This document shows, in pieces, positions 3,221 to 64,000 of a stretch of DNA of 64,000 nt. Within the stretch, counting starts at the first letter, position 1, and every line of letters begins with the position of its first letter. The notes under the pieces are model-generated. The model had not been told where the DNA came from and did not search any database. It saw only the letters and a program-made list of their open reading frames with translations. The position numbers and the translations under genes were made by a program. This DNA comes from Eledone cirrhosa (Eukaryota), in NCBI GenBank assembly GCA_964016885.1, contig OZ024741.1, positions 356,376,001 to 356,440,000 of the forward strand, in the 5' to 3' direction.

Positions 3221-3416
3221 CAGCATCAAATACAGGATTATTCTCAAGACTTGTCACAGCAGTCACAACAGCATCTATTGCACTTCCATTTTGTTGTAAT
3301 TTCATAAATCCTAAATTAGCTGCCTGTTTTACTCCTTCTCTGCTTCTGTCAGCTATATCATCAGGTATAGCCCACGCTCCACCATGGATTACTATAATTG
3401 GTTTCATATCATTCAT
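3221..3416 (-). CDS. ASRGL1: Isoaspartyl peptidase/L-asparaginase (type 2 asparaginase), first coding exon; gene continues beyond the window start
   Basis: MNDMKPIIVIHGGAWAIPD..G...AA..G...L...GSAIDAV..AV..LENNPVFDAG is the family N-terminus. Acceptor ttttttttag| before 3452 (36 nt of UTR, then ATG 3416); phase-1 donor G|GTATGT at 3220. Confidence 0.88.
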
Positions 3417-3643
3417 ACTTCACTCCCTTCTTCCTGTGGCAAGAATTTGTTCCTAAAAAAATAAAAATTAAAACCCAGATATACATACATATAAACCCAG
3501 ATATACATACTAGACCACCCGTGACCCGTTGGGTCATGTTCACTTTAAATAATTAAAATATACAGACATGTATATAATGTATATATATGGGTCTTCCAGT
3601 TTCATTTCACGTGTATATGTGTGTTTGTATATATATATATATA

Positions 3644-4685
3644 CTAGCAGCAGTACCCAGCGTTGCCTGGGTAGGTAAAATAATATCTGCTTTGATGAAA
3701 AGGTGTTGATCTTAGTGACTGCTTCTCGATGACTCATCTATGGCCACACACAAGCCATGCAGAGGAGGATGGTGATGACCTCTATCACTGAGAAACGCAG
3801 ATGACTGACGAAGGGGCATGCTGGGGGAGGGAGGTAATGACCTCTAACACTAAGCCAAATTTCCTCACGCTACTTGATTGGAAACTGATGAATTCTCAAA
3901 TACACAACTAAAAGCTCAGACGACGTCAGTGGCTATCATTTTGCCTTTGACCATCTATAAGATGTGCAATGATAGGTTCTATCGTAGTATAAAAGTTGAA
4001 CCAAATAAATTGATTTATATGTGAGGTGGAGCTGAAGTTTCGAATTTGAACGAAATCGGTTGAAAAATGTGGGAGCTAGAGCCGAAAAGGCGGAAATTTG
4101 AGCGAAAAGGTGGTATTTTCGAATATTCAAGCGGCTGCCACGCCGTTCCTGAACAAAAAATCCAAAACGTGAAGCCACTTTAAAACGTGAAATAATCAGA
4201 TCTAGTGTAGTGTAAAATTTGAACAAAGTAGGTTGATTAATGTGGGAGCTAGAGCCGAAAAAGTGGAAATTTGAGTCTAAAAGTGGTATTTTTGAATATT
4301 TAAGCGGCTGCCACGCCGTCCCTGAACAACAAATGCAAAATATAAAGCCGTTACAGGATGTGCAATGATAAATTCTATTTTGCTTTAAAATTTGAAAGAA
4401 ATCGGTGGCAAAATGTGGGAGCTAGAGCCAAAAAATCTTATTTTTCGATATCTAAAAAAAGGTGACCCACCTATCGATTTTTATCTGCAGAATGACCCCG
4501 GAATAAAAAAAACAATACGCTGATATATAGAAAACACTCCCCAATGACTAATCTATGAGCCTGTAAGGTTTCATGAAAATCGGTTGTAAAATGTAGGCCC
4601 CTAGAGGTAATACACAGACACACAGACACACACATACTTAATTTTATATATTTTTATATATATACAGATATATATATATAGTATA
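3644..4685 (-). mobile_element. Second Helitron-like non-autonomous element nested in the first unit
   Basis: CTAG followed by hairpin TACCCAG..CTGGGTA at 3644-3672, three internal AATGTGGGAGCTAGAGCC repeats and an (ACAG/AC)n tract near the other end. A similar terminus occurs at ~26937. Confidence 0.45.
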
Positions 4686-5364
4686 TAAGAGGGATAAGTT
4701 GTAGTGTGCGGGAGAGAAGACTGCGGAGGTTGACTGCTGGGTAAAGAAGTGCCAAGAAATGCCAGTTGAAGGAAGACCACAAAAAACACGGGCGGAGGTG
4801 GTGAGAGCGGACCTCAGATCGCTGAAGCTCACGGAGGAGATGATGAAGGACTGTGACAAGTGAAGAGATGCAGTGCTGAATAGGACTCGTCCGACCCTTG
4901 CAAGCAGGGAAAAGCGGTCTCTTCCATTCTCCTTCTCCTCTCCCTCTCTTTATGTCTTTCTTTCTCTGTTTATGAACGTACCCGGAAAAACCCCATATCT
5001 TGGGAATCCGTGGTCCAATTTATATGAAACTTGTTTTATTTCATTTGTATTCCTATTTCAGTGTCAACTTCCTTTCACAGTATTTTCCCATTATGTGCCC
5101 TTTTGGGTTTATTACATTACAGACAAGCAAGCAAGCAATCACAGACTTTTAGTAATATACTAGACCACCTGTGACCTGTTGGGTCACGTTCACTTCCAAA
5201 TATTTAAAAAAATCATGTTCACTTAAAAATAATTTTTAAATAATTAAAGCATACATACATGTATATAATGTGAAATGAAACTGGAAGGCCCATATATATA
5301 CATGTGTGTATGGATATATATATATGATTGTGCGAGTGTGTGTGTGTGTATATATATATATATC

Positions 5365-7425
5365 GGAGTAGATAGGGTCATTAGAGACAAAAGACTAGCA
5401 TGGAAGGCTTGGAAAAAGGGTGGGAGTAGAGAAGGATATACAGCCGCTAAGAGAGAAGCTAGACGTCAGGGAGGCTGAGAGTAAGAGATTTGCCAATGTT
5501 CTGCAACGGGAAGATCAGAGGCGTGCGGTGTTCCACATTGCAAGGCGGTGTGTCAATGCAAATCAGGATGTTGTTGGAGATAAATGTGTCCGGAATGATG
5601 CCGGTGTACTTAGTGTCACGAATGATCAGAAAAAGGAGGCCTGGAAATGTCATTATGAGAGACTGATGAATGTGGAGAACGAATGGAAGAGAGAGAAATT
5701 ACCCTCAGTAGATCCGATAGAGGGACCAGCTATTGAGATTGACAAATATAGGGTCCAAGAGGCGATTAAGGAAATGAAAAATGGTAAGGTTGCTGGACCT
5801 TCGGGGATAGTTGCTGAGATGCTGAAGGCATCAGGGGACGTAGGCACTAAACTGGTTGCACGCATCATCAATCAGGCTATATATGGCGGTGTCATACCCA
5901 AAGACTGGTGCAGCAATATTCTCATAAATTGCTATAAAGGTAAAGGGGATGCTCTGGAGAGGAGCAATTATAGGGGTATAAAACTGATGGATCAGGTTAT
6001 GAAAGTGGCAGAAAGGATATTAACACAACTAATTAGAGAAAGGGTCAAACTAGATGAGATGCAGTTTGGTTTTGTGCCTGGGAAAAGTACAACAGATGCC
6101 CTTTTCTTGGTGAGACAATTACAAAAGAGGTTCTTAGAGAAGAATAAGCCACTATACTTAGCTTTTGTTGACCTAGAGAAAGCTTTGATAGGATACCCCG
6201 ATCTGTCATCTGGTGGTCCCTAAGGAAACTAGGTGTTGAGGAATGGCTTGTGAGGACAGTGCAAACTTTGTACAGAGGTGCTGTCAGTAAAGTCGGGTAG
6301 GAATGGAGTTTAGTGAGGAATTCCAGATACAAGTAGGAGTACATCAAAGTTCAGTCCTCAGCCTGCTCTTGTTCATTATAGTTCTCTAAGCCATAACAGA
6401 GGAGTTTAAGACTGGCTGTCCATGGGAACTTCTCTATGCTGACGATCTGGTTCTTATAGCAGAATCAGTAGAGGAGCTAGAGAATAAATTCTGGCTATGG
6501 AAACAGCAGTTGGAAGCAAGAGGACTGAGAGTGAACCTAGCTAAGACAAAAGTGTTGATGAGTAGAAAAGAGGACAAAACTCTGATTCCGTCAGGAAAAT
6601 GGCCATGTTCGATATGCAGAAAAGGAACTGGCATAAATTCCATAAAATGCACACAATGCAGATCCTGGGTACACAAGAGATGTAGTGGGATAGCAGGAAA
6701 ACTAACAAGTAGGGAGAAATACGTATGCAGTAGATGTACAGGGAAATTAGACAGTAGAAGTCACATTGATAGACACATTTTTCAAATGCAGGCGGATGCT
6801 ATAGAAGTGGTGGATAGCTTCCGGTACCTAGGAGATCAGATTAGCATGGGAGGGGGGTGTTCCGAGGCCATAGTATCTAGAATAAGGACTGGTTAGAAGA
6901 AGTTTAGGGAGCTGCTTCTTCTGCTGACAAAGAAAGGTTTCTCCCTGCATACGCAAGGCCAGTTATATGATGCCTGTGTGAGGAGCGCGATGCTGCATGG
7001 TAGTGAGACTTGGGCAGCAACTGCAGAGGATATGCGACGGCTGGAGAAAAATGAGGCAAGCATCCTCCGTTGGATATGCAATGTCAATGTGCATGAACGA
7101 CTGAGCATGAATGTGTTAGGAGAGAAACTGTCTGAGAGGGATAGAATGTAGTGTGCGAGAAAGGAGACTGAGGTGGTATGGACATGTGATGCGCATGGAG
7201 GATGACCGATGGGTGAAGAAGTGCCAGGAAATGCCAGTTGATGGAAGACGTGGTAGAGGTAGACCACGAAAAACATGGGTGGAGGTGGTCAGAACAGACC
7301 CCAGATTGCTGAAGCTCACGGTGGAGATGACGAAGGACCGTGACAAGTGGAGAGATGCTGTGCTGAATAAGACCCGTCCCACCCTTGCAAGCAGGGAAAA
7401 GCGGACGTAAAATGATGATGATGAT
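5365..7425 (+). mobile_element. RTE-clade LINE, 5'-truncated, disrupted ORF2
   Basis: RT motifs (GKVAGPSGI, NYRGIKL, QFGFVPGKSTTD, FVDLEKA, GVHQ.SVLS, LYADDL), a Cys-rich finger, RRLRWYGHVMR, GRPRKTW and an (ATG)n tail; several stops and frameshifts. Confidence 0.9.
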
Positions 7426-8017
7426 ATATATATATGTGGGTGTCTGTGATCTATATACACTGGTCATAGACACACTCACATATACACACACACACAAATT
7501 TATATACACAACACCACCAGTTCTCTCTTCCATTCTCCTTCTCCTCTCCCTCTCTCTCTGTGTTTCTCTTTCAATCTACTCTCTCACAACCACTATCTCT
7601 TACTCGCTATTTAAGAAGGTACCTGGAAAAACCTGCTATCTAGGCAACCCGTGCGCCGATTAACGCAAAACTTGTTTTATACCATTTATATTCCCATTTC
7701 AGGAGCAACTTCCTTTCAAAGTATTTCCCCATTATGCACTCCTTTTGGTTGTATTACATTACAGACAAGGAAGCAAGCAAGCAATCACAGAGTTTCAGTA
7801 GTATATAGATAGATAGATGTACTCATACATATATGCTAAGACAATATATAAACAACCAACCGGTTATTGAAACAACCAACTGGAAATTTCTAATAAATTG
7901 AAGTAAAAACTAACATGTGTGTGTGTTTCTTCTATTGGCAGCATGACCCTCCCAAAGTACAATATGTTTCAACACGTTTTCAGATAAGATATCTTGCAAA
8001 ACAAATTCAAAAACGAA

Positions 8018-8018
<1 letters not shown>

Positions 8019-8083
<65 letters not shown>
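8019..8083. repeat. (TA)n microsatellite
   Basis: Pure TA run; others at 13246-13328 and 18047-18097. Confidence 0.95.
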
Positions 8084-8086
<3 letters not shown>

Positions 8087-8207
8087 TAGTAACACAACAG
8101 TTAGTTCGCCATACCGAGAACAATTGTTTCACCTTATGCGGATCTGAAGATCCTCAAACATGGACTGAGTGCTCTACCACTACGGATGTTACCTTCCAGT
8201 GTTCTAC

Positions 8208-8238
<31 letters not shown>

Positions 8239-8239
8239 C

Positions 8240-9300
8240 TGGGGGGGGGGGGCCTTGGTCTTCGTAAGTGTTCATCCATCTCTCTCCCCTGCTTCCTTTC
8301 CTCCACCCACGCTTGCTCCACCGTGGTGAGCAGCATCCTCTCCTCTCCAACATGGACTAGTTCCAACAGGGAGTTGGGTCAAGATCTCCAGCAATGGAGT
8401 AAGTAGGGCTTGTCTCTTCCTGAGAAGGTGGAGGACAGTCGAAGTCAGACAACTTGGGACAGCATAAGTTCGAAGGCCACCTTCGACTCCCTCTTGGTCC
8501 AGTCAGATCAGTTTGCTAGGTGCTGCTTACTATCTGCCAGCGCCAAATACTCAGGCGACTAGGTTGATGCCCTATCCGTGGTCAACGTCGGTGGCCTACT
8601 CAGCCTGGACAAACTTCGTGTGTCCATCCCTCTCAGAGTGGGAGCTGACGTCTGCATGGGCTTGAGGTGGTGATCGGCAAACTCCTCGGCTCCATAGTAT
8701 TTCTTGCTGCCCGCTTCGCGCGTCACACGGGGCTAAACCTCATTCCGAAGAGAGCTTTGGCCCGGGCGAACATCCCCTCAGTCTTGGAACCATCTGGATT
8801 GTCCAGAAGTGACGGCAAAAGACCTGACGGCCTTAACCTGTGCTCCTGGTCGAGAGGCAGGTGCCTGTCTGGGACGTCACTGTTAGTGACTCTTTTGCTT
8901 TTTCCCCACATCCTGGATGCTGCGGTTAGGACGAGAGCCACAGCTTCCGCAGCCGAGCGGAGTAAGACCCTCAAATACTCTGATCTGTCGGTCAGCTACA
9001 TTTTTTAGCCTGTGGCTTTCGAGACGTTTGGGGGAGTCGGGCCGCTGACTGCGAGGTTCCTCTCGTCACTGGCGACTCGCCTAATAGAGGTAACTGGCGA
9101 ATCTCGCGAGGGCGCTTGGCTGTTCCAGCGCATTAGCCTCGCCATCAACCCAGGCAACGCTGCGAGTGTGCTGGCTTGCCTCAAAAATCATTAGAGAAGT
9201 TGCCCAGTACTCCTCGCGATGTTGCTGTCTTTTGCTCTGGTGTTGGCTCGGTTGTTCACTCCTTCCTTTACATTTTCTTTGATATTGTAACATTAAAAGA
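8240..9300 (+). mobile_element. CRE-like non-LTR retrotransposon 3' part (restriction-like endonuclease), degenerate
   Basis: LEPSGLSRSDGKRPDGL..W..G...WDVT and AFETFG..GP...FL..L..RL...TGE.RE.AWLFQRISLAI..GNAASVL; starts immediately after a (TA)n run. Confidence 0.6.
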
Positions 9301-9995
9301 ATATATCTTTCTGAATGAATCGCGAGCAATTTATGTTATCTGAGCATTTGTAATGTTATTTATGTATATATTTAAAACATATTTGTTATGTTATTCTACT
9401 GTAAATTTATTTATATGCTCTGTTTATATTTTCATTCTGAAAGAATTGCAAATGATTTGTAATGTTATTTATACAACATCGTTTACATATTAATGAAACA
9501 CAAGTTATGTAATAAATATTGATCCTTCAATTTATAAATGTAAAGTTGATACACCCATAACTAGAAATGATTACCATCAACTAAAGTAAATAAAATTTTT
9601 CCTCGTAATCATCTCACTTTAAGGGGATGAAAAAAAGCCCACTAGTCCACTTGAAAATAAGACGAAATGGTTACGACTGGATTAACTTTTATGAAAGGTC
9701 GTCCGTCGGCTCGGTTAGGGCTGACCTGGAGCTAAACAACGTGACGTTTCCATTCTCTTTTAAATAAACAGATAGTTTCTAGAATAAGGCCAGCAATTTG
9801 GTGGGGGAGAGTAGAGAAATTAAACCCCTAGTACTTGACTTGCACTTTATTGTATAGACCACGGAAGGATGAAAGACAAAGTTGACCTCGGCAAAAAGAA
9901 ATGACAAATATATCAACTTACCTGAGTGTTTAATGATCTTATAGAAAATATATTTCCGAAGGGGAAAATTGAAAAAAAATGAATATTTTTTTAAA

Positions 9996-10226
9996 CTAGG
10001 CGGGTACTTGAGATTGAACTGAAGGTTCTTGAGAACAAGTTATGCCAGTTTCTTCCTCAATTTTTTTCTGAATTTTAGCAGCCTTCTTATCATAAAAGTT
10101 TTTCATTTTCTTCAAATAGTTTACACGTACAGTTTTCAATCTGAAACCCGTTACAACACCTATAGCAAAAGCAACTGAAGCGATTATAATAATTTCTTTG
10201 CCGGTGGCTTGTATTTGGGCAAGCAT
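9996..10226 (-). CDS. MTLN: Mitoregulin-like single-pass microprotein (76 aa)
   Basis: Intact ORF (AAAATGC start, TAG stop). Hydrophobic segment IIIIASVAFAIGVVTGF followed by a basic helix. Ungapped hand alignment to human MTLN as recalled (VAFASGVLLGWQANRLRRRYLDWRKRRLQDKLAATQKKLD) gives 16 identities in 40 positions. Confidence 0.75.
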   Translation of the reverse strand: MLAQIQATGKEIIIIASVAFAIGVVTGFRLKTVRVNYLKKMKNFYDKKAAKIQKKIEEETGITCSQEPSVQSQVPA

Positions 10227-10239
10227 TTTCGACCGAGAC

Positions 10240-10370
10240 CATATAAAAACTAAATAGAAAAGTACGGAATACGAAACGCGTCACTTATGTATAAATCATG
10301 AGCATGTGTATCCGGTTAGAGGTAGTACTCTGTATCGTGCGCGTCATAAAAGACGGCCTAGTTGTTAAGT
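10240..10370 (-). promoter_or_regulatory. Candidate promoter of the MTLN-like/ASRGL1 unit
   Basis: Non-repetitive CpG-enriched patch (TGACGCGT, TGACGCGCAC) directly upstream of the ORF in CpG-poor DNA. Confidence 0.35.
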
Positions 10371-10399
10371 GTACTTTTTTAAAACTTTTATTATTGTAT

Positions 10400-11150
10400 T
10401 GCATTAGAGTAAACAAGTATTAAGATAAAACATACAAATAAAACCAATTTATATAAAAAGTGGGAGAAGAGACGCACACCAAATTGCTGCAGATGATAGC
10501 ATGGCTAAAGCGTCGGAATAACCAAGCACCCTCGCGGGCATCACCAGATACGTCGTTTAGGCGAGCTGCCAACAATGAGAAGAACGTCATTGGCAACCGC
10601 ACAACTCCCCTAATCGATTCAAATGCAACAGGCTAAAAAAGATAATTTACCAATAATTCCTGGTATTTTAGAATTTTATTCTGTTCAGCTACGGATGCCG
10701 TGACCCTCAACTTCTCCGCAACATTCAGGGTAAGGGTAGGAGCGAAAGAGTCAGTGACTGTGGTGTCCCAAATACGACATCTACCTCTTAGCTACGGTCA
10801 AAGCTCATTCAGATGAAGTAGGCCGTCGATGTTGACTACAGACAACGTATCATCGTCCCACCCCAACCAAGAATTTTACACTCCCAGAAAATAGGCTGTC
10901 CCTCGAGAATTTATTAGATTGATTAAAGAGAATGTTAAAAGTGTCTTTCGAACATAATTTGTCCCAGATTTTCTATCTAAATCTATCCTGCTTTGCACCT
11001 GGAACTAACAAATCCAGCTCCTTAGCTCACCTCCATTTAAGTAGAGCTTCCTCCACGTCCCTGTTTGAGCAAATCCATGTTGGAAAGGAAAAAATGTTAC
11101 CCACCAGAAGCGAGCAAGCATGGAACCGAGTTTGTATACACTATCAATAG
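10400..11150 (-). mobile_element. Second CRE-like element remnant
   Basis: LAARLNDVSGDAREGAWLFRRFSHAI and IWDTTVTDSFAP parallel the 8.7-9.2 kb element. Confidence 0.55.
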
Positions 11151-12289
11151 CTATAAACTGCTATTCTCTCTGTAATCAGGTAATTTAGTAATCATTCTCT
11201 AATGAAGTTGTAAATAACACTGAAAATCGTCAGATTGATCTCCTTATTTTTAGCCACATTTAGGAGAAATGTAGTTTACCTACAGTATCTAATTTTTACA
11301 ATGACGCTCATCATGTGTTTATAAAAATCGCACCCCTATAAGTTTACCTTACATCATTTATTGAAACATTGAACATTGATTCTATTAATTTAATTAATCT
11401 ACGTAGCTAACTATTGTATTGTTATGCAAATTAGAGGAAATTAGTTTAGTTCTATCGAAATTAGTGTATACAATAAATAATTATAAGCTTCTATTCTCTC
11501 TCCAGTTGGGAGATTGAGTAACCAATATATGACGAAACAATTTTTTAAAATGTTGAAACTAATCAAGTCAAAATCCTATTTCTGACCACAAAGAGAAAAC
11601 ATGGGATTATGGTATTTCAGTTCTTATAACCTTATGGTTGATTACTCTGGCTTAGATAATATTGCTTCCAGTATGGCACGCTACGACAGAAGAAAGCACA
11701 CACCTACATTTGTAACGAAGGGTATTTTATATGAAATTAGTGAGAATGATAATATTTGTATTTGTGTATCAACCGAAGTCACCAATTGAAGCGAAGGTGG
11801 TTAGTAGTTATCGTTAGATGAAATAACATGAATAGCTGGTTTACTTTGGATATAAAAGGTTTACTGCACTTCACTTCATAAATAAACAAAGAACAGATTA
11901 TTAAGAGTTATAAGGGTTGAAGGTATTTTTGATGTTGCTTCTTGATGCTGGTGTAGTCTGAGACCAGGAGAGAGAGTAAAGGTTTGTAGTTGTCTGTAGA
12001 CCCCAGTGGCCTGTAGTTATAGGTGAATGTTTTACATAGCTCTTCTCTGGCGTACGGCTCCAATCTTTCTGTGTGTTAGAAGTGGGATGATAGAGGCATT
12101 TTATACCTGTCGTTTTCTGTTTCCCGCCACAAAGGATCGCCCACGTACGAACTTGTTTACGCCGAAAAGGAGGCGACCCGGAATTTGACCTTTCTGTGTC
12201 ACCCAGGGTTCAAGGCATGGACAGATTTCGCTACACACTGACCCCCCATCATGCTCAGCAGTTTGCAAATTCTACTTGTTGCTGTCTGG

Positions 12290-13235
12290 GAGATACTACC
12301 ACTCAGAGGAAGTGTGTCTAGCGATTTTTTCCTTAGACATTCTAACCACATCTCTGATGTCCATAGTACCGGAGCTATATCGATTTATCATCATGAATCA
12401 ACCTTCTGAAACGATCGTAAAACAATCAACTAATTAAACATTTAACTTCGCCGTTTGTTTTCAAATTGGAGATCACCTTCCGTCGTCTGCAAATTCCAGC
12501 CGACTAATGTTACACCTACCAGTCGTGATACTACTTCCAACCCGGCTGAGCATGTCAATCCTGTTCGTGAAAATAATGAACAGGCGAGGTGACAGTACGC
12601 ACTCTTGGCGGTGTCCGACTCCCACATGGAATGTCAAGTTTCGATTTAGCACCGAACACAAATACTCGGGCATTCGTATCAGGGCAGCAAGAAGCTGACC
12701 ATCAATCCCATACTCCTGCACAACCTTCCACAGTAGGCCTCGAGGAACGCGGTCACATGCCTGTTCGAGGTCTACAAAACAAGAATATACTCCTTGGCAA
12801 TACTCCCACGATTTCTGGAAGACTTGGCGCAGTGTGGATATTTGGTCAGCTGTGCTGTGTCCGGGGCAAAAACCGCACTGTTCATCAGCTAGCTTGGATT
12901 CGGCAATCTCCCTGCATCTCATTGCCAGACACTTAGCATAGACACTACTGGATAGGCTTAACAAGGAGATCCCTTTGTAATTGGAACAATCTTTCTTGTC
13001 TCCCTTTTTGAAAATTGGGATTATCTTTCCCGATTGCCATTGCTTAGGTGCCTTTCCAGAGAACCAGGTCACCCAGCACATACGAGTCAGCCAGAGAATA
13101 CTGTCTCTATTTAAGTATTTTAACATCTCGGGTCGGATTTCATCTTCCCCAGCGGCCTTGCTACATATGAACTCTTTAACTACTCTTGTGACCTCAGACG
13201 CCGAGAGGTTAGTCACCGCTCCCAGATGCATCCGA
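12290..13235 (-). mobile_element. RTE (Rex3/Expander-like) LINE RT fragment
   Basis: KAAGEDEIRPEMLK, WQSG.IIPIFKKGD, EQCGF.PG.STADQI, FVDLEQA.DRVPR, FADD. Related remnants at ~35.0-35.25, 45.0-45.2 and 60.4-60.6 kb. Confidence 0.8.
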
Positions 13236-14252: not shown

Positions 14253-16332
14253 GCATATTGACCTGTTTACATGCACACACATAAAAATGAGGATGTAAAA
14301 AAAGAAGAAAAAACAAAACAAAAAAACATAGATGTAAAAACACGGATATAAAGACACATATACATACACATATATATATACACGCACGCGCACATACGGA
14401 GGCGTTCGTGTACATATATAGAAAGTATACACACATTAAGGCGCTCAGACACATAGATACAGGGTGTAAAAAGCCTTGTGGATAAGTAAGTACAAATATA
14501 AAATTATAAGATTGGCTGCGAAATAATAAAAAATATCTGGATTGGAAAACGTAAGTGATTTGTGTAATCAGTTAGTGAAGAAAATAGGGAAGTAAAAAGT
14601 GGAAAGTTAAGATATTAGGTAAGTGAATCGGAGTATAAAGGGGGAGGGGTTATTGGTGGATGTGAAGTAAAAATAAAAAAATAAAAAAAAATAAAAATAA
14701 AAATAAAAATAAAAATAAAAATAAAAATAAAAATAAAAATGAAATTAATAATAAGGATAAAAATGAAAGTAAATCAGAAAGGGTAGTTATAAAGAGAATA
14801 ATAAGAGTTTATGGAGGATAAGTATCTGAAAGTGTGTTAAGTTTATATGAGCTGGAAAGCAGGTGTGATTTCATGTGTGGGCAACTGGTGAAAATTTCTG
14901 TCTTTGTGTTCAGGCAGGTCTTTGGTGATTTAAGATTTTGCAAGATCCAATATTTTTCATTTATGCAGAGCGTGCATTTTCTTGTTCCTCTTGCATATTC
15001 TTTAGATTGGTTCAAAATTGACCAATCCAATTTATATTGGATACCTTGGTCTTTCAAATCCCATTTTCTGCTAGCCAGAGCTGTTGTAAATCTTTTTTCT
15101 GGATGTCGAAAGGATGCGACATGTGAGTAATAACGCGTTTTGAATTTGTCTTGCGTCATACCCACATATCGTTCACTGGTGGCTGGATGGTTGTTGCTGA
15201 TGGTTGTCACTTTAGCCGCATATACAATGGCTTTGGTGTTGCATTTACCTTGTAATGGGCATTCACTTTTGATTCTACAGGAGCAATTTTGATGTTCTCT
15301 AGGTGATTTTTTGTTGATGATATAGGACTTAATAGGGGGACCGCAGGAATAGCTAATTTTGACACAGTTTCTATTAAAGATCTTATAGTATATATGTGTT
15401 CTAGGGAAATGTTTATCGAGGAGCTCTAGGAATTTTTTGCCTACATTAGTTTTAACTGCTAGAGAGTAGGGGGGTGTGAACCAGATTATTTTTCTTTTCC
15501 TGTTTTTATGTTTAATAGAGTTAGTATAGTTGGGTATGTATTTAATCGGTTCGCTAAAACCGCTATTTTGGAGGGCTTTATTATAGTAGGGGGATGCCTT
15601 ATTAAAAATAGCTTCTGAGGAAGATAGGGTGGAGATCCTACGGCTAATATTAGGGATAAGGTTTTTAAAAACTATAGGAGGATGGCAAGAGCCTTTATTT
15701 ATATATTTTAAGTTTTCATTAGGTTTATGGTATGGTTTATAAGAAGCAGTAGGCAAATCTAGGTTTATATCTAGGAAATCTACATTGGAAAGGTTAGTGT
15801 CAATAGTAATTTTAAGATTAAAACTAGCGAAGGTTTTTATTAAGTCTTTCCTTAATCTATCTAAGTTATGGCCTATGGTGGTATGGGAAAGTATTAGACC
15901 ATCGTCGCGATAAAGCCCAAAAATATGGTTATGAAATTTTTCTTTACCTCTTTTACTTCCGCATATAAGTGTACGTGCGTGTGGGTGTGTTTATACGCGT
16001 GCCTTCATATTCTTATAATGTATCTAATACCCTATTTTTCTGTGTACCTGCCAAACAGAAAACCACATCATGTCTGCCTGTAGTTACAGATACACAGATA
16101 CACTTGCCCTAACACATATATTTATGCACACTTTTTCACTATACGTACACATTTGTACATACACACATATGTACATCTGTGAGCGTATATACATACATAT
16201 ACACACACCTAACTATATTTCTTGAAAGATTTTTATATATTTCATATGGCTATTGTAATTCATTTGTCTATATTTATATAATTTTTTTTGCTTTTCTTGA
16301 TGAGACTTTCCAAGTATTTAGCCATGTTTTAT

Positions 16333-36279: not shown

Positions 36280-37873
36280 CAGTGGCGGACATGGAAGTAA
36301 GAACACTTTTTATTTTGCATGTAACTTTTTAGTTATTTTGTTTCTGTAACTTTGCAATATGCCAAAAGAAGGAGAAATAATTTCTCTATTGCTATCTCTG
36401 TTATTAAGCCAATTAGTAAAGCGAACCAGTTTTTATGGCTCATTAACGCAATTATAGCAAGATTTTGGCGGACGTGGAAGTAAGAACACTTTGCATTTCC
36501 TATGTTTACTTTCTTCATAGCTACTCTAGCAAATTTTAGATTTGTATAATAAAATATGATTTTATATATGACATTTTTCTTTTTTCCAGCATTTTATTAT
36601 TATGGGGAGAAAAAGAGATTTGAGTCCTACTAAACGGGCACGGATCGTCGAGTTGAGAAAGTTGAATTTTTCCTTCCGCGTGTTTTCTAAGATGACAACA
36701 TGCAGCTCCACTGCTTGTATTCAAGCCTGGCGCACTTGGGAACGTACAGGATCATACAAATCGAAGCCAAAACCAGGACCAAGTCGAAAAACGGACGATC
36801 GCCAGGATAGAGCGATTGGCCGGTCATCAGAAAATGACCGAAAAAAGACTGCTGTCGAGATCTGCTCCGAAGTGAACACTTCCCACAACTCGGATATCTC
36901 AGTCAGAACTGTCCGTCGTCGTCTGCGCGAAATCGGACTCAATGGTCGCATCGCCAGACGTGTTCCGCTCATCTCACTCGCCAACCGTCGCAAACGACTT
37001 GCATTCGCATACAAATATCTCGCATGGACACCTGCTGATTGGCGCAAAGTCCTATTTTCAGATGAAAGTCTATTCACCATGGTCGGATCAGATGGCAAGA
37101 CTTATGTCAGAAGGAGAACACACTCGAGGAATTCGATGATCGGTGTTCTCAAAAAACGGTGAAACATGGTGGAAAATCGATCATGTTCTGGGGTGCATTT
37201 TCGGCTATGGGCACCGGTCCCCTTGTTCCCATTTCCGGCAGTATGAACCAGAACACTTATGTCAAGATCCTGGAAGACCATTTGGAGCCCTATGTTGATG
37301 AAAATATGCCTTTAAATTGGCAATTTGTGCAAGACAATGCCCCGTGTCATTCTGCAAAGTCGGTTAAGCAATTTTTTCATGAGAAAAAATGGAAGGTCAT
37401 CGATTGGCCTCCTCAATTGCCAGACTTAAATCGTATAGAAAACCTGTGGCATTTAATAAAGCGCGAAATTCAACATCAAAACCCAAAAAACTTTCACGAT
37501 CTGATGGCCACCATCAACCTGACATGGAACTTCAGTTTGGACCAATGCATGAAATTAGTGGAAAGTATGCCTAGAAGATGTACTGCCGTGATCAAACAGA
37601 AAGGATATGCCACCAAATATTGATTTCGACCATAATTCGAGCATTAAATGAAATAAAATAAAAGTGTTCTTACTTCCATGTCCGCCAAAATGTGGCTATA
37701 ATTGCGTTAAAGAGTCATAAGAACTGGCCTATTTGACTAATTGGCTTAATAACAGAGATAGCGATAGAGAAATTATTTCTCTTTCTTTAGGTATATTGCA
37801 AAGTTGCAGAAACGAAATATCAAAAAAGTTACATGCAAAATAAAAAGTGTTCTTACTTCCATGTCCGCCACTG
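36280..37873 (+). mobile_element. Tc1-family transposon, full length, IR/DR type, one frameshift
   Basis: TA|CAGTGG..CCACTG|TA; ~210-bp TIRs, each with two GCGGAC(A/G)TGGAAGTAAGAACACTTT repeats; transposase 36602-37623 with FSDES, QDNAPCH, LNRIENLW (DD34E). Confidence 0.95.
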
Positions 37874-46280: not shown

Positions 46281-48110
46281 TAATAATAATAATAATGAAT
46301 TATTGTGTACAGTGCTCAGGTGCACTACAACTCATCAAAGGTGCATGTATAGTACATAGAATAATGTACAAATGTCAGGAAAATGAACAGTGTATGAGTC
46401 ATGATATAATAACAATAACAATAATGAAATATTGTGTACAGTGCCCAGGTGCACCACAACTCATCAAAAAAGTGCATGTACAGTACATAGGGCAATGCAC
46501 AAACATCAGTAAAATGAACAGTGCACGAGTCATGATACACACATGTGTGCATGTGTATGGAAAGGGTACATCAGGTGTAGTTTTGGCGTATTTTGGGAAG
46601 CATGAGTGTCTTAAAGGATGCAGTGTCTCGGCAGCTAACAATTGACGCAGGCAGTTTGTTCCATGCTTCAGCAACTCTGAGCGTGAGAAAATGTCTGCGA
46701 AAGTCATGGGAGCTGTGCTGTTTTCTTATCTTGTAGGCATGTCCACGTGTGTTAGACACATGGAGATCAAAGAGGCGCTCAGGGTTGCAGTTGGCGAGAT
46801 GGTTAAAAACTTTGTGGGTATTCACCAAGTCCATTGCCAGACGTCGGAGCTTCAATGAATCCATTAGACACATGGAGATCAAAGAGGCGCTCAGGGTTGC
46901 AGTTGGCGAGATGGTTAAAAACTTTGTGGGTATTCACCAAGTCCATTGCCAGACGTCGGAGCTTCAATGAATCCATGCCCAGGGAAGCAAGGCGTTCAGA
47001 GTATGGTAGGTGTCTGATGGAGGGTATACGCTTGGTTGCACGTCTCTGAACAGTTTCCAGGAGGTCAATGTTCCGAGCAAGATAGGGGTTCCAGACTGAT
47101 GATGCGAATTCCAAGTGTGGTCGCACCATAGCTGTATACAGTTTTAAATAGATGGCTGGAGAGCGGCTAACAAAGGTCTTGCTGGGTGATGCCAAGACAC
47201 CCTCGGCCTTCTTGACAATCTTAGAGACATGCTTTGTCCAACGCAAATCGTTGCTGACAGTAATGCCCAGGTCACGTTCACAAGAGGACTTTTTGATGTC
47301 AGTGTTGTGGAGGGAGTATGTGGACGCTGGATTTTTCCTTCCAAAATGCATGGTGGTACACTTGTCCACAGCCAGCTTCAGTTGCCAGTCTGTGATCCAT
47401 TGCTGCATTGTGTCCAGGTCTGATTGTAGGAAAGAGTTGTAAATTTCAGGATCAGTCCTTTTGATTTCAAGGTACAGCTTGATGTCATCTGCATATTTTA
47501 GTACCGTGGCATTCTGTAAGTTGGCATCTATGTCATTAATATATGCCACAAACAAAAGAGGACCAAGAACAGATCCCTGTGGTACACCAGATGACATCTC
47601 ATATGGTGAAGAATGCTGTCCTAGAACCGTGACTACTTCCTTTCGGCTGAGAATGAAGGATTTCAGCCAGTCGAAAAGATCATCCCTCACACCCATTGCA
47701 GAGAGTTTTGCCATAAGTCTTTTGTGTGGCACAGAATTAAAAGCCTTAGCAAAGTCAAGGTAAACAACATCCACCCATGAGCCGCTGTCAGTGATCCGGG
47801 TGATATCCTCAAGGAACTCGATAAGCTGATCACAACAGCTGGAGTTAGGGATAAATCCAAACTGTGAGGGCCGGATGAGGCTGTGAGAGCTCCAGAAGTT
47901 CCAAAGTGTTTCTCTGACACAGGATTCCATCAGTTTGGCCATACAGCTAGTAAGACTGACTGGACAATAGTTGACAGGTGACATGCGGTTGCCCTTTTTG
48001 AACAGGGGAATGACACTGGCAGTTTTCCACTGCTCCGGAGTAGCACCATTGCTGAGACAGTATTGAAAGAAAAAAGAAAGCTGGCGCAAAAGGAAATCCC
48101 CTGATAACAG
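46281..48110 (-). mobile_element. CR1/L2-type LINE, 5'-truncated, open RT frame
   Basis: PLFKKG, QFGF, YLDFAKAF, SGVPQGSVLGPLLF, YADD, ERDLG; 112-bp tandem duplication at 46752-46975; (TTA)n tail. Confidence 0.92.
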
Positions 48111-48694
48111 AATTATAACAGAATTATGTGTTTTCTCAGGAAATTGAAATATTACATAGGAAGTCATGAGTGAAAGGTCACTTTATCTTCAATACTTCAT
48201 ACTACATTGGAAAAGAAATATTTATTTAAGGATAGGAAAGAAAAGAGCTTATCATCAAACTGGACTAAGGAAATAATGTTTCCATTTATCTGTCCATAGC
48301 TGACATTATCTGCCAGTCACAATCCCTGAGAGAAGGAGGAAAGATTTATTTAAAGTCAGAACTAACAGGGCGGGATCAGATACCACAAAATACCCTGTCC
48401 AACTTTTTAACAATCCTGTCAATCTACCGTCCCTGGACTGGTACATGATTTATTGATCCTGAAAAGATGATTGGCAAAGTTGACTTTAGTGTTATTTCAA
48501 TTCAGTGCTGAGAGCTCGAACAAATACCAAAGCATTCAATTTAACACCTGAACAACTCTGCCAGTTTGATGCCTACATGATAAAAAAAAACAGGCATTAA
48601 GATTTACTTTTTACTTTGTTTGAAAATCTATATTACCGATCCTTACATAGATTATTATAAATGATGCAAATTAAATAATAATGTTTTGTTTCAG

Positions 48695-54771: not shown

Positions 54772-55221
54772 CTCAAAAACATCGCGTTTTGTGCAGTGTT
54801 AACTTTTTCAATACCAAATGATGATATATATGTGTGTGTATATACATTTACATACATACACACAGTATATAATATTTAGTATTTAACTTGGTTGAAATTT
54901 CTGAAATCAAGAGTAAATTTTCCCAATAGATTCTCCACAATAAATTAATGTCTACCGTTACCCATTACCATTCATCCTTTCGGGGTCAATAAATATGTAC
55001 CAGTCTAATACTGGGATCGATTCTTCTGCTATACCTCTTTCTCACTTCCTCTATATCATGCTCTCTTCTCTGGAACAAATCGGCTGTGTTCAAACCTGAG
55101 GAGGAGATGGGCTCCACTAGATTTTAAATGGCCAAGACTCCATCAGGAGTTACAGGTCTATACATATATATACAGTTACCCAAGTTCTTCATGAACTAAA
55201 TATTTCTTTTATGTTTATTAG

Positions 55222-55456
55222 TGTTGACACAGGAAAAACAGCAACCTTTGAACAAGAACATCCCACGTCCCATCAAGTCAAACCTGCAAATAAGGACATT
55301 AGCGAAACAATCCTTGAAGAAGAGGAGGAAGAGCCAAGTGAAACTAGATTAGAGGAGACAAAGGTTGATTCTTCTGATATGCCACCTCCTCCTCCTCCAC
55401 CAAATCTGGCATATTTTTCAACTGAAGTTTCTCGTACAACATCACCAAATCAAATG
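55222..55456 (+). CDS. PPME1: PPME1 exon, acidic/Pro-rich variable loop
   Basis: ILEEEEEE parallels the PME-1 acidic tract; phase 2-0 fits both neighbours. Confidence 0.82.
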
Positions 55457-57323
55457 GTAATTTTCTGAATTTTGTATCTATCAGTAAAAAATGTATCCTT
55501 TTCTTTTTTCCTATTTTATATATATATATATTTTTATTTTTTTTATTTTCTTATAGTTTACACTTTGCATTATTGGCAAACATTGCCATTAAATACATCT
55601 TTCAATAATTAGAAATTGATTTCTTAATCAGACATTAACCCTTTCGTTATCATATTCCTAATGACATATACTGTATTTCAATTAATTAATGAAGTATTTG
55701 GAAAAATGTACTAAAATTATTGTTTCATTTGTAAGATAGTATATAGGGTTGGGGATTGGCAGAATCATTAGAGCATTGGACCTAATGGTTTGTGGAATTT
55801 CTTCTGGCTCTTTATGTTATGAGTTCAGATACCACTGAGGTCAGCTTTGCCTTTCATTCTTCTTGGAGCGATAAAATATAATACCAGTGAAATATTGGGT
55901 TTCATATGATTGTCATTCTCCTTTCCTCAAAATTGATGGCCTTGTTCTAAAATTTGAAGCCATTACTCTTTTACTCTTTTACCTGTTTCAGCCATCCGGC
56001 TGAGGCCATGCTGGGGCACCGCCATTATTAACTTAACAAAAGCTTCTTTTATTATTTAAATCAACATGATTTACTGTCACTTTTTTTTTGTTATTCACCC
56101 CAAGCAAAGCACTAAAAGCCACTAAAATGCAAGGAGTTACTGAGAGGAAAGGACAAGACAGCGAGATGATGACAATTAATGTCCCTTTTGAATTTTTGCA
56201 AATTGTAATGATCAGGAAAGCATGAAGCTGGAAGAGAATTCTATAGGCAAGATGTGCAAGGGAAGAAACCATCAGGATGGAATTTGCAATTGAATTTAGG
56301 AATTCCAACTGTAAATGGATGAAACCTAGCCCCCAATTTATTTAAACTCGTGAATACAAGGCAACAAAGTGGAAAACTCATCAGAACAATTCCCATGAAA
56401 ATATTTATAAAAAAGAGAAAGTGTGGCAACGTTCGACGGTGTGATAGTTTTCTAACATTTGTCTTCACCTCAGTAATGTATGCATGGAGTCGTTGGGATG
56501 CCATAGTGACATACAACTTTTCTTGGGCATTTTAAACTTGGCAGAGCCCTTTCCTCTCCGGAGGATTTCTTCCAGAGAAGGAGAGAGAAATAGAAACTGG
56601 TCGGATTTGAATTCAGAGAGCCAGAATGAATACTGCAAAGCATTCTATCTGACATTCTAATGATTCTGCCAATGTGCCACCTCCACCTCAGTAATACAGC
56701 TCTTTATTTACTTAATATCCAATATGGATGGAAACTACACGACAGATAAAGCAGTACCTTATCTCTCTTCCATCATTTATAACATCCAAATTGGTTGAGA
56801 GTTCAAAAATTCAGTTCAAACCCATTAACAATAGAGATTTTGCTTTGTCCATAATGTTATCTTTTATTGGGAAAGTGCAGCTTAATCTTTAGAGCACTGG
56901 AGGCAACAAAATGCACCATGGAGTAATCTCCGCTTAATAGATAATGCAGTGTCAAGGGAAACAACTCATAAAAATTACTAGCATGCTAAAGGTTCATTCT
57001 TTGAGTGTGAAAGTTATACTGTTATATCTTTTGCCTCCCATCCCTTGTATGTGTAAGATGTACTGGCAACTTTTAGTTTAGTTTATGAAGCACATATCCA
57101 GACAAAATAAATATAGCAACTTTCATCAAAATATATTTTTTATTCTATTTTTCTTTTGTTTTAACCATTTTTTTTTTTTATTGAAAACATTAATATGAAA
57201 TCACAGCTAAGGACAGTAAAATACCAAAAATGTCACTGGCACACAAAAATTTAATAGGTTACACCCTTGGAAGATTTTTATTATTCAACAATGATTGTTA
57301 ATTATGTTTTTATTAAATTACAG

Positions 57324-60815: not shown

Positions 60816-61184
60816 GTAAGGAAATAATTTTTTGTAATGGTTAATAATTTTGATAAAGTTCATTTAAAAAAAGATATTGACTGGATTATATATTTCCTTT
60901 GAAATACAATGCATATGATTTTTAGTTAATTAAAAAAATTATCAAGAATTTGTAGAGATTTAGTAGTATAACTTTCTTGTTAAGCTAGTGTTTGGAATAT
61001 AACTTAAAAACATTTAAAATAAAATTATGATGGAAGGTTTCTTTAGATGAATATACATATACTTTAATATAAACAGTTTTAATCAGAAGTGGTTTGGTAT
61101 CTAAAGGGTTAAGTAATATATAATTATGAATAGATACATAAGTAATATATATTAGTAGTCAAATTTATTTTAGTATATCACCTG

Positions 61185-64000
61185 ATCACCTATAGATCCG
61201 GGGAACACACAAGCCAGGTAGATTATATCCTTACCAGAAGACGTGACAGAGTGTCTGTTGTAAACACTAAATCCCTCCCCCATGAAGAATGCATCTCCCA
61301 ACATAGACTGATAATTAGCGACCTCATAGTCAGGACGAGACGTACTCGACAGCAGAAGAGGACTATCCTCAGGAGAAAAATATGGAAGCTAAAGGACCCC
61401 ACAGCCAGAAATAAATTTAAAAGCATATTACTTGATGCTTTCGACAGTAAGGAAGAGCATTTAGAGTCGGACAATATAGAGGGACAGTGGGAATTTCTGA
61501 AAGCAAACCTGCTGATGGCGACAGACGAAGTCTGTGGCTGGAGCAGGCCTGTAGGCAGGAGGAGAGTAACATGGTGGTGGAATAGTAAGGTGGAGGGGTC
61601 AATTAAGGCCAAAAAGCAGGCTTGGAAAGTATGGCGGGATGGGGGAAGTAGAGAAGACTATCAAGTGGCCAGGAGGGAAGCTAGGAGACAAGTGTACTTA
61701 GCAAGAAGGGAAGCAGAGGAAAGAAAGTTCAAGCATGTTCTACAACGCGAGGACCAAAAACGTGAGGTGTTCAGGATTGCTAGGTAATGCGTCAAGGAAA
61801 ACCGTGATATTGTCGGGGAGAAGTGTGTACTTAATGATGACGGCGTACTTGCCATCACCGACGCTGATAAGAAGTTAGCTTGGAAGTGTCACTATGAAAG
61901 GCTACTAAATGAGGAGAATAAATGGGAGAAAGACAGTCTCCCCCATATCGACCCAATAGAGGGACCAGCAGTGTTAGTCGAGGGGAGTATAATAAGTAAG
62001 GCAATCAAGGATATAAAGACGGGTAAGGCGGCTGGGCCTTCGGAAATAGTTGCTGAGATGCTGAAGGCATCTGGCACGGTGGGACACACCATGGTCACCC
62101 GCATAGTTAACCAAGTCGTACAGAATGGGGTTGTTCCGAAGGACTGGCATAGCAGCATCATCGTTAACTGTTATAAGGGTAAAAGAGACGCCCTAGATAG
62201 GAGTAACTATAGAGGCATTAAATTAATCGACCAGGTCATGAAGGTCACGGAAAAAGTAATAGCGCAACTAATCAGAGAGAGAATTGACCTAGATGAAATG
62301 CAGTTCGGGTTTGTGTCAGGCAAAAGTACCACAGACGCTCTTTTCATTGTACGACAATTTCAGGAGAAGTACCTAGCTAAAGGTAAACCCCTCTACTTAG
62401 CTTTTGTCGACTTGGAGAAAGCCTTCGACAGTCCCCCGCTCCATTATCTGGTGGGCTCTTAGAAAACTAGGCGTTGACGAATGGCTTGTGAGAGCTATAC
62501 AAGCCATGTATAAAGAAACAGTCAGCAAGGTTAGAATTAACAACGAATATAGTGAAGAGTTTAGCGTAAAAGTTGGCGTCCATCAGGGCTCTGTTCTCAG
62601 CCCCCTACTATTTATTATTGCCCTTCAGGCTATAACAGAGGAGTTCAAGACCGGCTGCCCATGGGAACTCCTATACGCAGACGACCTGACACTCATAGCT
62701 GAATCAATGGCCGAGCTAGAGAAGAAATTCCAAACATGGAAGCACGGCCTAGAATCAAAAGGACTTAAAATTAACCTGGCTAAGACTAAAGTTCTAGTTT
62801 GTAGGAAAGAAAATAAGGCGGCGGTCCCTTCTGGGAAATGGTCATGCTCAGTGTGTAGGAAAGGCGTAGGTAGAAACTCCATTTTATGTCCTAAATGCAA
62901 AGTATGGGTGCATAAAAGATGTAGTGGGATCACAGGTAAGCTAACTAAGAACATAGATTTTACATGTGGCCAGTGCTCTGGTGCAATAAGTAGCAGCAAG
63001 TGCCCACAAAATACTAGCTCTTTCAATTGCGCAGAGGGTTCTATAGAAATAGTGGACAGCTTCCGTTACCTGGGCGATAAAATCAGCAGTGGGGGAGGGT
63101 GCTCTGAAAGTACAGTAGCTAGAGTCAGAACTGGTTGGAAAAAGTTCAGAGAGCTTATACCACTATTAGCTGCTAAAGGGTTCTCCCTAAAAATGAAAGG
63201 CAGGTTGTACGATGCCTGCATACGAACAGCAATGTTGCATGGCAGTGAGACCTGGGCATTGTGTGCAGAGGATATACGCAGACTAGAGAGGAACGAAGCT
63301 TGCATGCTCCGCTGGATGTGTAATAGTAATATACGTGAACGGCAAAGCATAAACGAACTAAGGAAAAAATTAGAAATAAGAGGGATCAGATGTTGTTTAC
63401 TCGAGAGAAGGCTACGTTGGTATGGACACGTGATGCGCATGAAAGTCGATAGCTGTATAACAAAGTGCAGGGCAATAAAGATAGACGGTAGCCACGGAAT
63501 AGGCAGACCTAGAAAAACCTGGGACGAGCTGATAAACTCCGACCTCACACACTTACACCTCTCCAAGACAATGTCACTGGACCGAGACCTTTGGCGGTAC
63601 TCAGTAACAGAGAAGACCTGCCTTACCTAAATACATAGTAAAACCTACTACAGCCAATAGGCATCTCTAACAAAATACACCCCGTCCCACCCCATCCACA
63701 CCACCCCGTTCTATGTAAAGTTATGTTGGTGCCGCGCCATCCAGGCCGAAACAAATGAGATCGTGTAGGTGTCACGACAAAAAAACACACAGTCCACGCT
63801 GTAATGTGGCCGTGTAGGCAACACGGTAAAAACCTCCCAGACCCACACTGTAAATGTGGTTGGTGTTAGGAAGGGCATCCAACTGTAGAAAACCTGCCAG
63901 ACAGTCCTATGCGAGCATGACAATCACTCTTGCCTCAAGTGGGACTACCCCCGTCCAAACCCATGCAAGCATGGAACACGGAAGTTAAACGTTGATGATG
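61185..64000 (+). mobile_element. RTE-clade LINE, 5'-truncated, young
   Basis: End of the APE domain (SQVDYIL, SQHRL), RT (GVHQGSVLSPLLF, YADD), PHD-like finger, 3' UTR and GATGATG tail; one stop near 61787 and one frameshift near 62430. Confidence 0.93.

Follow-up and report, generated by a model that had tools for sequence, protein, structure and literature searches.

We describe here a cephalopod locus at which a mitoregulin-family open reading frame (ORF) lies upstream of the gene for ASRGL1 on the same strand and likely shares a message with it. The window, meaning the whole 64,000-nt stretch of DNA that was analyzed, comes from Eledone cirrhosa (contig OZ024741.1, positions 356,376,001 to 356,440,000), and the features of the locus are collected in Table 1. 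The ORF runs intact from ATG to TAG over 76 codons and is single-copy, with one match in the 3.0-Gb genome. Sequencing depth in the DNA-like runs X1-X3 is 8-10 in both bins inside the ORF, versus thousands in the flanking repeats, and the sole variant listed inside it (position 10164, runs X2-X4) is synonymous. The original prediction, which was made from the sequence before this analysis and had described an intact 76-aa ORF in unique sequence, is borne out in this respect. Length alone is no evidence for a gene, because the window holds 61 ATG ORFs of at least 76 aa.

The encoded protein has the hydrophobic-then-basic layout of mitoregulin in fewer than 100 aa, as the original prediction of one hydrophobic helix and a Lys-rich tail had it: residues 12-30 form the predicted transmembrane segment, and the next 28 residues carry the basic charge. 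Its predicted structure is one helix over residues 9-59, with pLDDT values of about 80-90 over residues 11-50 and a mean of 71.7. An acidic C-terminal extension had also been proposed. A tail is present, of low confidence and predicted to be disordered, but it is only mildly acidic and varies among relatives.

Exon 2 of ASRGL1 sits 6.5 kb farther down the strand of the ORF, and exons 3 to 7 lie within the next 23 kb. Exon 2 matches Pfam Asparaginase_2 (PF01112; E=2e-13) and the isoaspartyl peptidase/L-asparaginase of PDB entry 4pvp (E=1.4e-10). The gene was assigned on the Asparaginase_2 profile match together with a full-length intact frame: the six coding exons, all on the same strand, yield an intact 314-aa ASRGL1 that is identical at 270/314 positions to XP_014778262 of Octopus bimaculoides. 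This identity places the genome among octopus relatives and confirms the mollusc origin that had been proposed for the ORF. Three named Octopus ASRGL1 proteins begin at the same Met. Exon 2 begins at an acceptor 36 nt before the ATG, so that an upstream exon is needed.

Two further observations concern the enzyme. Its cleavage motif reads GHNT in Eledone and in all three Octopus proteins, with Asn before the cleavage-site Thr (exon 5); the corresponding residue is Asp in Artemia and in metagenome locus L028 (motif GHDT), described below, and Glu in sea urchin. The Asn may affect self-cleavage of ASRGL1. Elsewhere in the genome are an intronless Asparaginase_2 match (G000:C1:163701422-163702312, plus strand; model positions 1-262 in a 399-aa frame; E=5e-53) and a further multi-exon member of the family (C1:292.64-292.66 Mb).

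Table 1. Features of the mitoregulin-ASRGL1 locus. Plain positions are those of the window; G000:C2 positions are those of the genome.
Feature	Position	Strand	Basis or remark
CpG-rich, promoter-like leader with four out-of-frame upstream ATGs (10347, 10305, 10299, 10242)	10227..10450	minus	Composition
Likely exon 1 of the shared transcript	9922..10389	minus	X4 record 30; the 5′ end is the contig end, not a mapped start site
Mitoregulin-family ORF, 76 aa, likely upstream cistron	9996..10226	minus	ORF list, Pfam, profile, genome search, shuffles
Predicted single transmembrane segment, residues 12-30	10137..10193	minus	Mean Kyte-Doolittle 2.27
Basic helix, residues 31-58, 10 K/R in 28 residues	10053..10136	minus	Composition, model
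ATTAAA hexamer directly before the donor; possible end of a short isoform with mitoregulin alone	9929..9934	minus	Motif
Likely intron 1, 6469 nt, repeat-rich; canonical GT donor, pyrimidine-AG acceptor	3453..9921	minus	Sequence, X4 contig
ASRGL1 exon 2, 232 nt: 36-nt leader, start codon at 3416, first 65 codons	3221..3452	minus	Pfam, PDB
ASRGL1 exon 3	G000:C2:356371646-356371504		Outside the window
ASRGL1 exon 4	G000:C2:356371004-356370835		Outside the window
ASRGL1 exon 5	G000:C2:356357787-356357666		Outside the window
ASRGL1 exon 6	G000:C2:356356139-356356029		Outside the window
ASRGL1 exon 7	G000:C2: from 356353901 downwards		Outside the window

Sequencing reads were compared with window positions 7500-12500. 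No run is recorded as RNA, which is evidence neither for nor against; run X4 was taken as RNA-like from its coverage pattern, because it comprises 88 M letters, has a depth of 36.5 on the ORF, and has no cover on the unique stretches 9504-9670 and 11174-11674 that runs X1-X3 cover. One X4 contig (record 30, 1014 nt) places letters 546-1014 on positions 9921-10389 with one other letter and no gap. Its agreement with the genome then ends at a canonical splice donor, 74 nt past the mitoregulin stop. The last matching base is G, which is the first base of both intron 1 and ASRGL1 exon 2. Counting this shared G, 546 nt of the contig lie beyond exon 1, compared with 545 nt for ASRGL1 exons 2, 3, and 4 together. 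By our estimate, the chance that a contig end lies no more than 1 nt from any of five junctions spread over 1-1.5 kb is about 1-1.5%. The donor break and the 546/545 length match make splicing from 9922 to 3452 in the Eledone genome a strong inference, as is a single promoter near 10390.

The CpG observed/expected ratio of the leader is 1.91, versus 0.50 for the window. A 50-codon out-of-frame ORF (10090-10242, minus strand) starts from a weak-context AUG and overlaps the mitoregulin start. Its stop coincides with the last internal AUG (10093), beyond which no AUG precedes that of ASRGL1, and it is a possible bypass route to that gene. L028 has no upstream AUG in its 70 nt before the mitoregulin ORF. 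Upstream of exon 1, a 229-nt X4 contig (depth 6) matches unique DNA perfectly at 10891-11119 and could be a divergent transcript or DNA carry-over. Elsewhere in the window, an exon-like open frame with acidic and poly-proline runs (55121-55468, plus strand) has no Pfam match and may belong to a plus-strand gene. Frames at 36572-37623 and 61146-63630 (plus strand) and at 14809-15990 and 46803-48182 (minus strand), judged by eye, are presumably Tc1/mariner transposase-like and several reverse-transcriptase retroelement frames.

Membership in the mitoregulin family was assessed with profiles and with homologue searches. The Pfam model MTLN (PF22002) matches the ORF at E=1.6e-5 with 25.1 bits, narrowly below its cut-off of 27 bits. 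The matched residues 15-57 and model positions 12-54 are equal in length, consistent with a gapless alignment. In a genome-wide search with the same model the ORF was the best match, but at E=0.075; the second match (C12, E=0.3) was rejected as a low-complexity frame. Pfam side matches of the ORF to Tipalpha and IMS (E>0.03) were dismissed as noise. A word-indexed homologue search with the single protein gave no match, whereas an exhaustive search found five relatives, two of them at 58% identity, and a profile search found 10 (P0002-P0011). Four close relatives share 53-66% identity with the window protein over about 60 residues. Nine of the 10 profile relatives, including three of the four closest, score above the Pfam cut-off (30-54 bits).

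The reciprocal genome search used a single distant protein as its query. This protein, P0010, is 39% identical to the window protein and scores 53.6 bits on MTLN, and genome-wide it matches only the window locus (E=6.6e-7), giving a reciprocal best match with accepted members of the family. A distant-member profile was then built from nine relatives, with the window ORF and its four close relatives left out. It aligns to the ORF at 98% probability in hhalign (E=1.4e-13), and the ORF scores 56 bits on it. Shuffled versions of the ORF (2000 full and 2000 segment-wise, of which 1772 and 1995 were scored) never score above 17.5 bits, and among 4816 frames in 264 kb the runner-up to the ORF reaches E=0.88. 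The family assignment of the original prediction is upheld by these results, with the ORF's own Pfam score lying under the cut-off. Two MTLN clusters top the named clusters of the ESM Atlas, at 0.83 (mostly Mollusca) and 0.79 (mostly Chordata), and serve as leads only. The Atlas cluster named "Mitoregulin family protein" has 54 members, among which the commonest recorded phylum is Mollusca, with the phylum known for 2. The family profile gave no match among solved structures.

Across an alignment of 11 sequences, F20, G23, G27, K31, R34, and L38 are invariant, and K31, R34, Y37, L38, and K48 are conserved in the basic helix of the window protein. A Trp that is invariant in the distant members is Val here, and the hydrophobic helix is the second most hydrophobic among 13 members. 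On its sequence, the ORF is filed as a divergent mitoregulin orthologue, and it is almost certainly a real, unannotated cephalopod mitoregulin. Translation, mitochondrial localization, and mitochondrial function of the peptide would follow by analogy with the vertebrate protein. The expectation that annotation would treat the ORF as untranslated region (UTR) also agrees with what was found: its place is the likely 5′ leader exon of ASRGL1, and a look-up of 12 MTLN-like relatives in NCBI/UniRef (P0002-P0011, P0121, P0122) gave a name for none of them. The novelty at family level is below what the original prediction implied, as non-vertebrate members are already in protein databases. Mitoregulin is described as vertebrate-only in reviews. 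A literature search of titles and abstract starts, with subscription papers outside its scope, found neither an invertebrate mitoregulin nor a pairing of mitoregulin with ASRGL1.

Related loci were collected from metagenomes with a degenerate motif designed from alignment A2. Of the 18 loci that the scan returned, 16 have an MTLN-like ORF, and L033 and L038 do not belong to MTLN. The motif came from A2, which makes the A2 scores of the loci circular in part; the Pfam MTLN model was run on three of the 16, and all three pass. The motif occurs in 0 stretches of the genome_contigs and viral_contigs sets, and a related-locus pattern search in metagenomes returned 31 pattern matches with 0 confirmed.

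One of the 16 loci, L028, contains a 65-aa MTLN ORF (34.8 bits), then 42 nt, and then a complete intronless 320-aa ASRGL1. Two fragments on 3.8-kb contigs, P0127 (identical to residues 1-96 of L028 ASRGL1 and then continuing with unrelated letters) and P0126 (residues 115-171), indicate introns in this animal's gene, so that L028 is read as a spliced mRNA. A mature transcript with two conserved ORFs that do not overlap is therefore observed directly in L028, and for the Eledone genome it is inferred. L028 comes from a non-cephalopod animal. Its ASRGL1 shares 52-56% identity with the octopus, vertebrate, sea-urchin, and Artemia proteins, about equally with each, and branches outside both the Octopus and the vertebrate clade in a tree that assigns it to no phylum. 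The other 15 MTLN loci belong to one lineage, and their downstream stretches (54-4927 nt each), all shorter than Eledone intron 1, contain no ASRGL1 match at E<0.01. The pairing is thus seen in 1 of the 16. When the longest contigs of the 10 MTLN matches and of 109 ASRGL1 matches were compared by length, no two were equal, an outcome that carries no information on the pairing. Thirteen distinct coding sequences (CDS) from these 15 loci give a median dN/dS of 0.098 and a maximum of 0.196 over 76 of 78 pairs. Purifying selection is thereby computed for the CDS of the other lineage; the window ORF has protein-level conservation and the one synonymous variant. That two distant animals share both the partner and the gene order is difficult to account for without common ancestry, and on these sequences the pairing probably came down from an ancestor that the cephalopod shares with the L028 animal. 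It is probably old but not universal.

Other sequences follow mitoregulin in the second lineage. The near-identical loci L027 (3539-4897, minus strand) and L040 (635-1993, minus strand) contain an intronless 453-aa CCCH-finger/RING ORF, which we take to be makorin-like, 27 nt after the mitoregulin stop; its protein cluster has six members at at least 90% identity. This ORF is probably a retrocopy using the mitoregulin promoter, since sister loci lack it. Between L030/L039 and L031, a 1.17-kb block that lies roughly 1.6-2.7 kb past the mitoregulin stop is 68% identical and has no long ORF; it is either conserved or repeated sequence. The Drosophila asparaginase gene is, we assume, the one named CG7860. 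Neither this name nor "asparaginase" occurs in 12 supplementary files of a study of Drosophila dicistronic loci (PMC4528330), a set that leaves out file 1, which may be the polycistronic list.

We favor, with a probability of roughly three in four, the reading that mitoregulin is the first and ASRGL1 the second cistron of one spliced mRNA and that the first product is a single-pass mitochondrial membrane protein, as in vertebrates. The bicistronic message taken by itself is likely, at a confidence somewhat above that for the complete reading, and this context, absent from the original prediction, is the more surprising part. Ribosomes would start mostly at the mitoregulin AUG, and a fraction would cross the spacer, through leaky scanning or reinitiation, to the ASRGL1 AUG. 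In Eledone the spacer from the mitoregulin stop to the ASRGL1 AUG is 110 nt long, AUG-free, and out of frame, so no fusion protein is expected; the L028 spacer is AUG-free too. Between the two starts there are 2 AUGs versus 6.2 expected in Eledone (P=0.04) and 0 versus 4.35 in L028 (P=0.01), as judged by a mononucleotide shuffle, a modest test. AUGs are not scarce in the makorin-like case (3 versus 3.85 expected). Such scarcity is reported as the pattern of leaky-scanning bicistrons in algae and Drosophila (PMC11892635). The mitoregulin AUG and an internal in-frame AUG both have A at -3, which does not favor leaky scanning, so reinitiation or a minor alternative isoform may contribute. In mammals, nonsense-mediated decay could be set off by a stop codon that precedes a junction by 74 nt. 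By homology, the peptide would insert in the mitochondrial outer membrane with its basic helix toward the cytosol and would support lipid and fatty-acid handling. What the two genes most likely gain from the pairing is joint transcription, not a physical complex.

The alternative that survives best, although we consider it unlikely, is that both genes are real and are expressed mostly from separate mRNAs, with mitoregulin on a short message that ends close to the ATTAAA at 9934 or within intron 1, ASRGL1 transcribed from another first exon, and the joined form minor. It would suit that hexamer and the AATAAA motifs at 9851 and 9411, the strong -3A contexts at the upstream AUGs, and the finding that only 45/159 Drosophila dicistronic loci are exclusively dicistronic (PMC4528330); moreover, read placement spans 7500-12500, and the intron part 3453-7499 lies outside it. 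However, a single X4 piece is listed over the ORF and it extends beyond the donor, the intron bins 9504-9837 have an X4 depth of 0-1, and L028 is a single contig whose 42-nt spacer leaves little room for a promoter. We regard it as improbable that the ORF persists chiefly as a regulatory upstream ORF (uORF) that throttles ASRGL1 translation, its peptide having drifted to a state with no mitochondrial role. The amino acids of a purely regulatory uORF need not be kept, yet those of the window ORF are 53-66% identical to those of the four close relatives, and its hydrophobic-then-basic layout is intact. The Pfam score under the cut-off, the lost Trp, and the high hydrophobicity of the helix point the other way, as does STREMI, a mitochondrial uORF that can in addition regulate the ORF downstream of it (PMC13303939).

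Very little probability attaches to a fusion, in which the ORF would serve ASRGL1 as an N-terminal membrane anchor joined by alternative splicing or read-through. The L028 spacer is in frame and contains no stop, and a preprint argues, by its title, that many uORFs are exons; against a fusion stand the frame of the Eledone spacer, the X4 contig that crosses the stop without a gap, the presence of only one weak donor-like site inside exon 1, and the common start Met of the Octopus proteins. A chance ORF of generic hydrophobic-basic composition, to which the abundance of ORFs this long, the sub-threshold Pfam score, and an Atlas match that is only a lead might point, is effectively refuted by phmmer relatives at E=7e-17 and 2e-16 among 1.84 billion proteins, the failure of segment-wise shuffles, the one match of the reciprocal genome search, and the same gene order in L028.

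A wider history built on the bicistronic reading has, in our view, even odds. Mitoregulin would be an old animal gene that was bicistronic with ASRGL1 in an early ancestor, a state that cephalopods and at least one distant phylum retained and vertebrates gave up, and its short, AUG-poor first exon would repeatedly lend its promoter to unrelated genes (ASRGL1, the makorin-like retrocopy). Annotation would then have hidden mitoregulin as 5′ UTR because this exon lends its promoter to downstream genes. A conserved mitoregulin-ASRGL1 message, if true, would be an unusually old animal bicistron and a test case for the origin, persistence, and splitting of such a pair. Non-vertebrate orthologues provide a far deeper alignment for finding the mitoregulin residues that matter, as well as new model animals for its disputed membrane location and partners. 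A conserved shared message would also give annotation something concrete to correct: a conserved gene concealed within the 5′ leader of a housekeeping enzyme.

The window ORF resembles vertebrate mitoregulin (MTLN/MOXI/MPM, LINC00116; PF22002) in its N-terminal hydrophobic helix followed by a basic helix, its profile match over model positions 12-54, and its position within a first exon (PMC6091870). The vertebrate protein has 56 aa, versus 76 aa here with a variable disordered tail and the conserved Trp lost. The host here is a cephalopod, and the ORF likely forms the first cistron of a message for an enzyme; the major human transcript, in contrast, measures about 440 nt (PMC6091870), and vertebrate MTLN appears to stand alone. 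Vertebrate mitoregulin is reported to insert in the outer membrane with its C terminus in the cytosol (PMC10469944) and to bind cardiolipin, with targeting by basic residues (PMC6091870); vertebrate studies disagree on inner versus outer membrane and on its partners (PMC11920140). Eledone ASRGL1, with a 314-aa product from six coding exons, resembles the known enzyme (PF01112; PDB 4pvp) and differs in that it is likely translated from the second cistron of a message. Among described systems, STREMI-SLC35A4 (PMC13303939) comes nearest. In that pair and in sloth1/sloth2 of Drosophila (PMC9681215), as these sources describe them, a small mitochondrial membrane protein comes first, as is predicted here, and the downstream partner is unrelated, with no evident functional link between the products. 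STREMI-SLC35A4 is described from jawed vertebrates only, and its downstream ORF is intronless (retroposed) (PMC13303939). The CCCH/RING ORF of L027 and L040 fits this retroposition model. In contrast to STREMI-SLC35A4, ASRGL1 has introns in both animals, and its pairing with mitoregulin appears in two distant non-vertebrate lineages.
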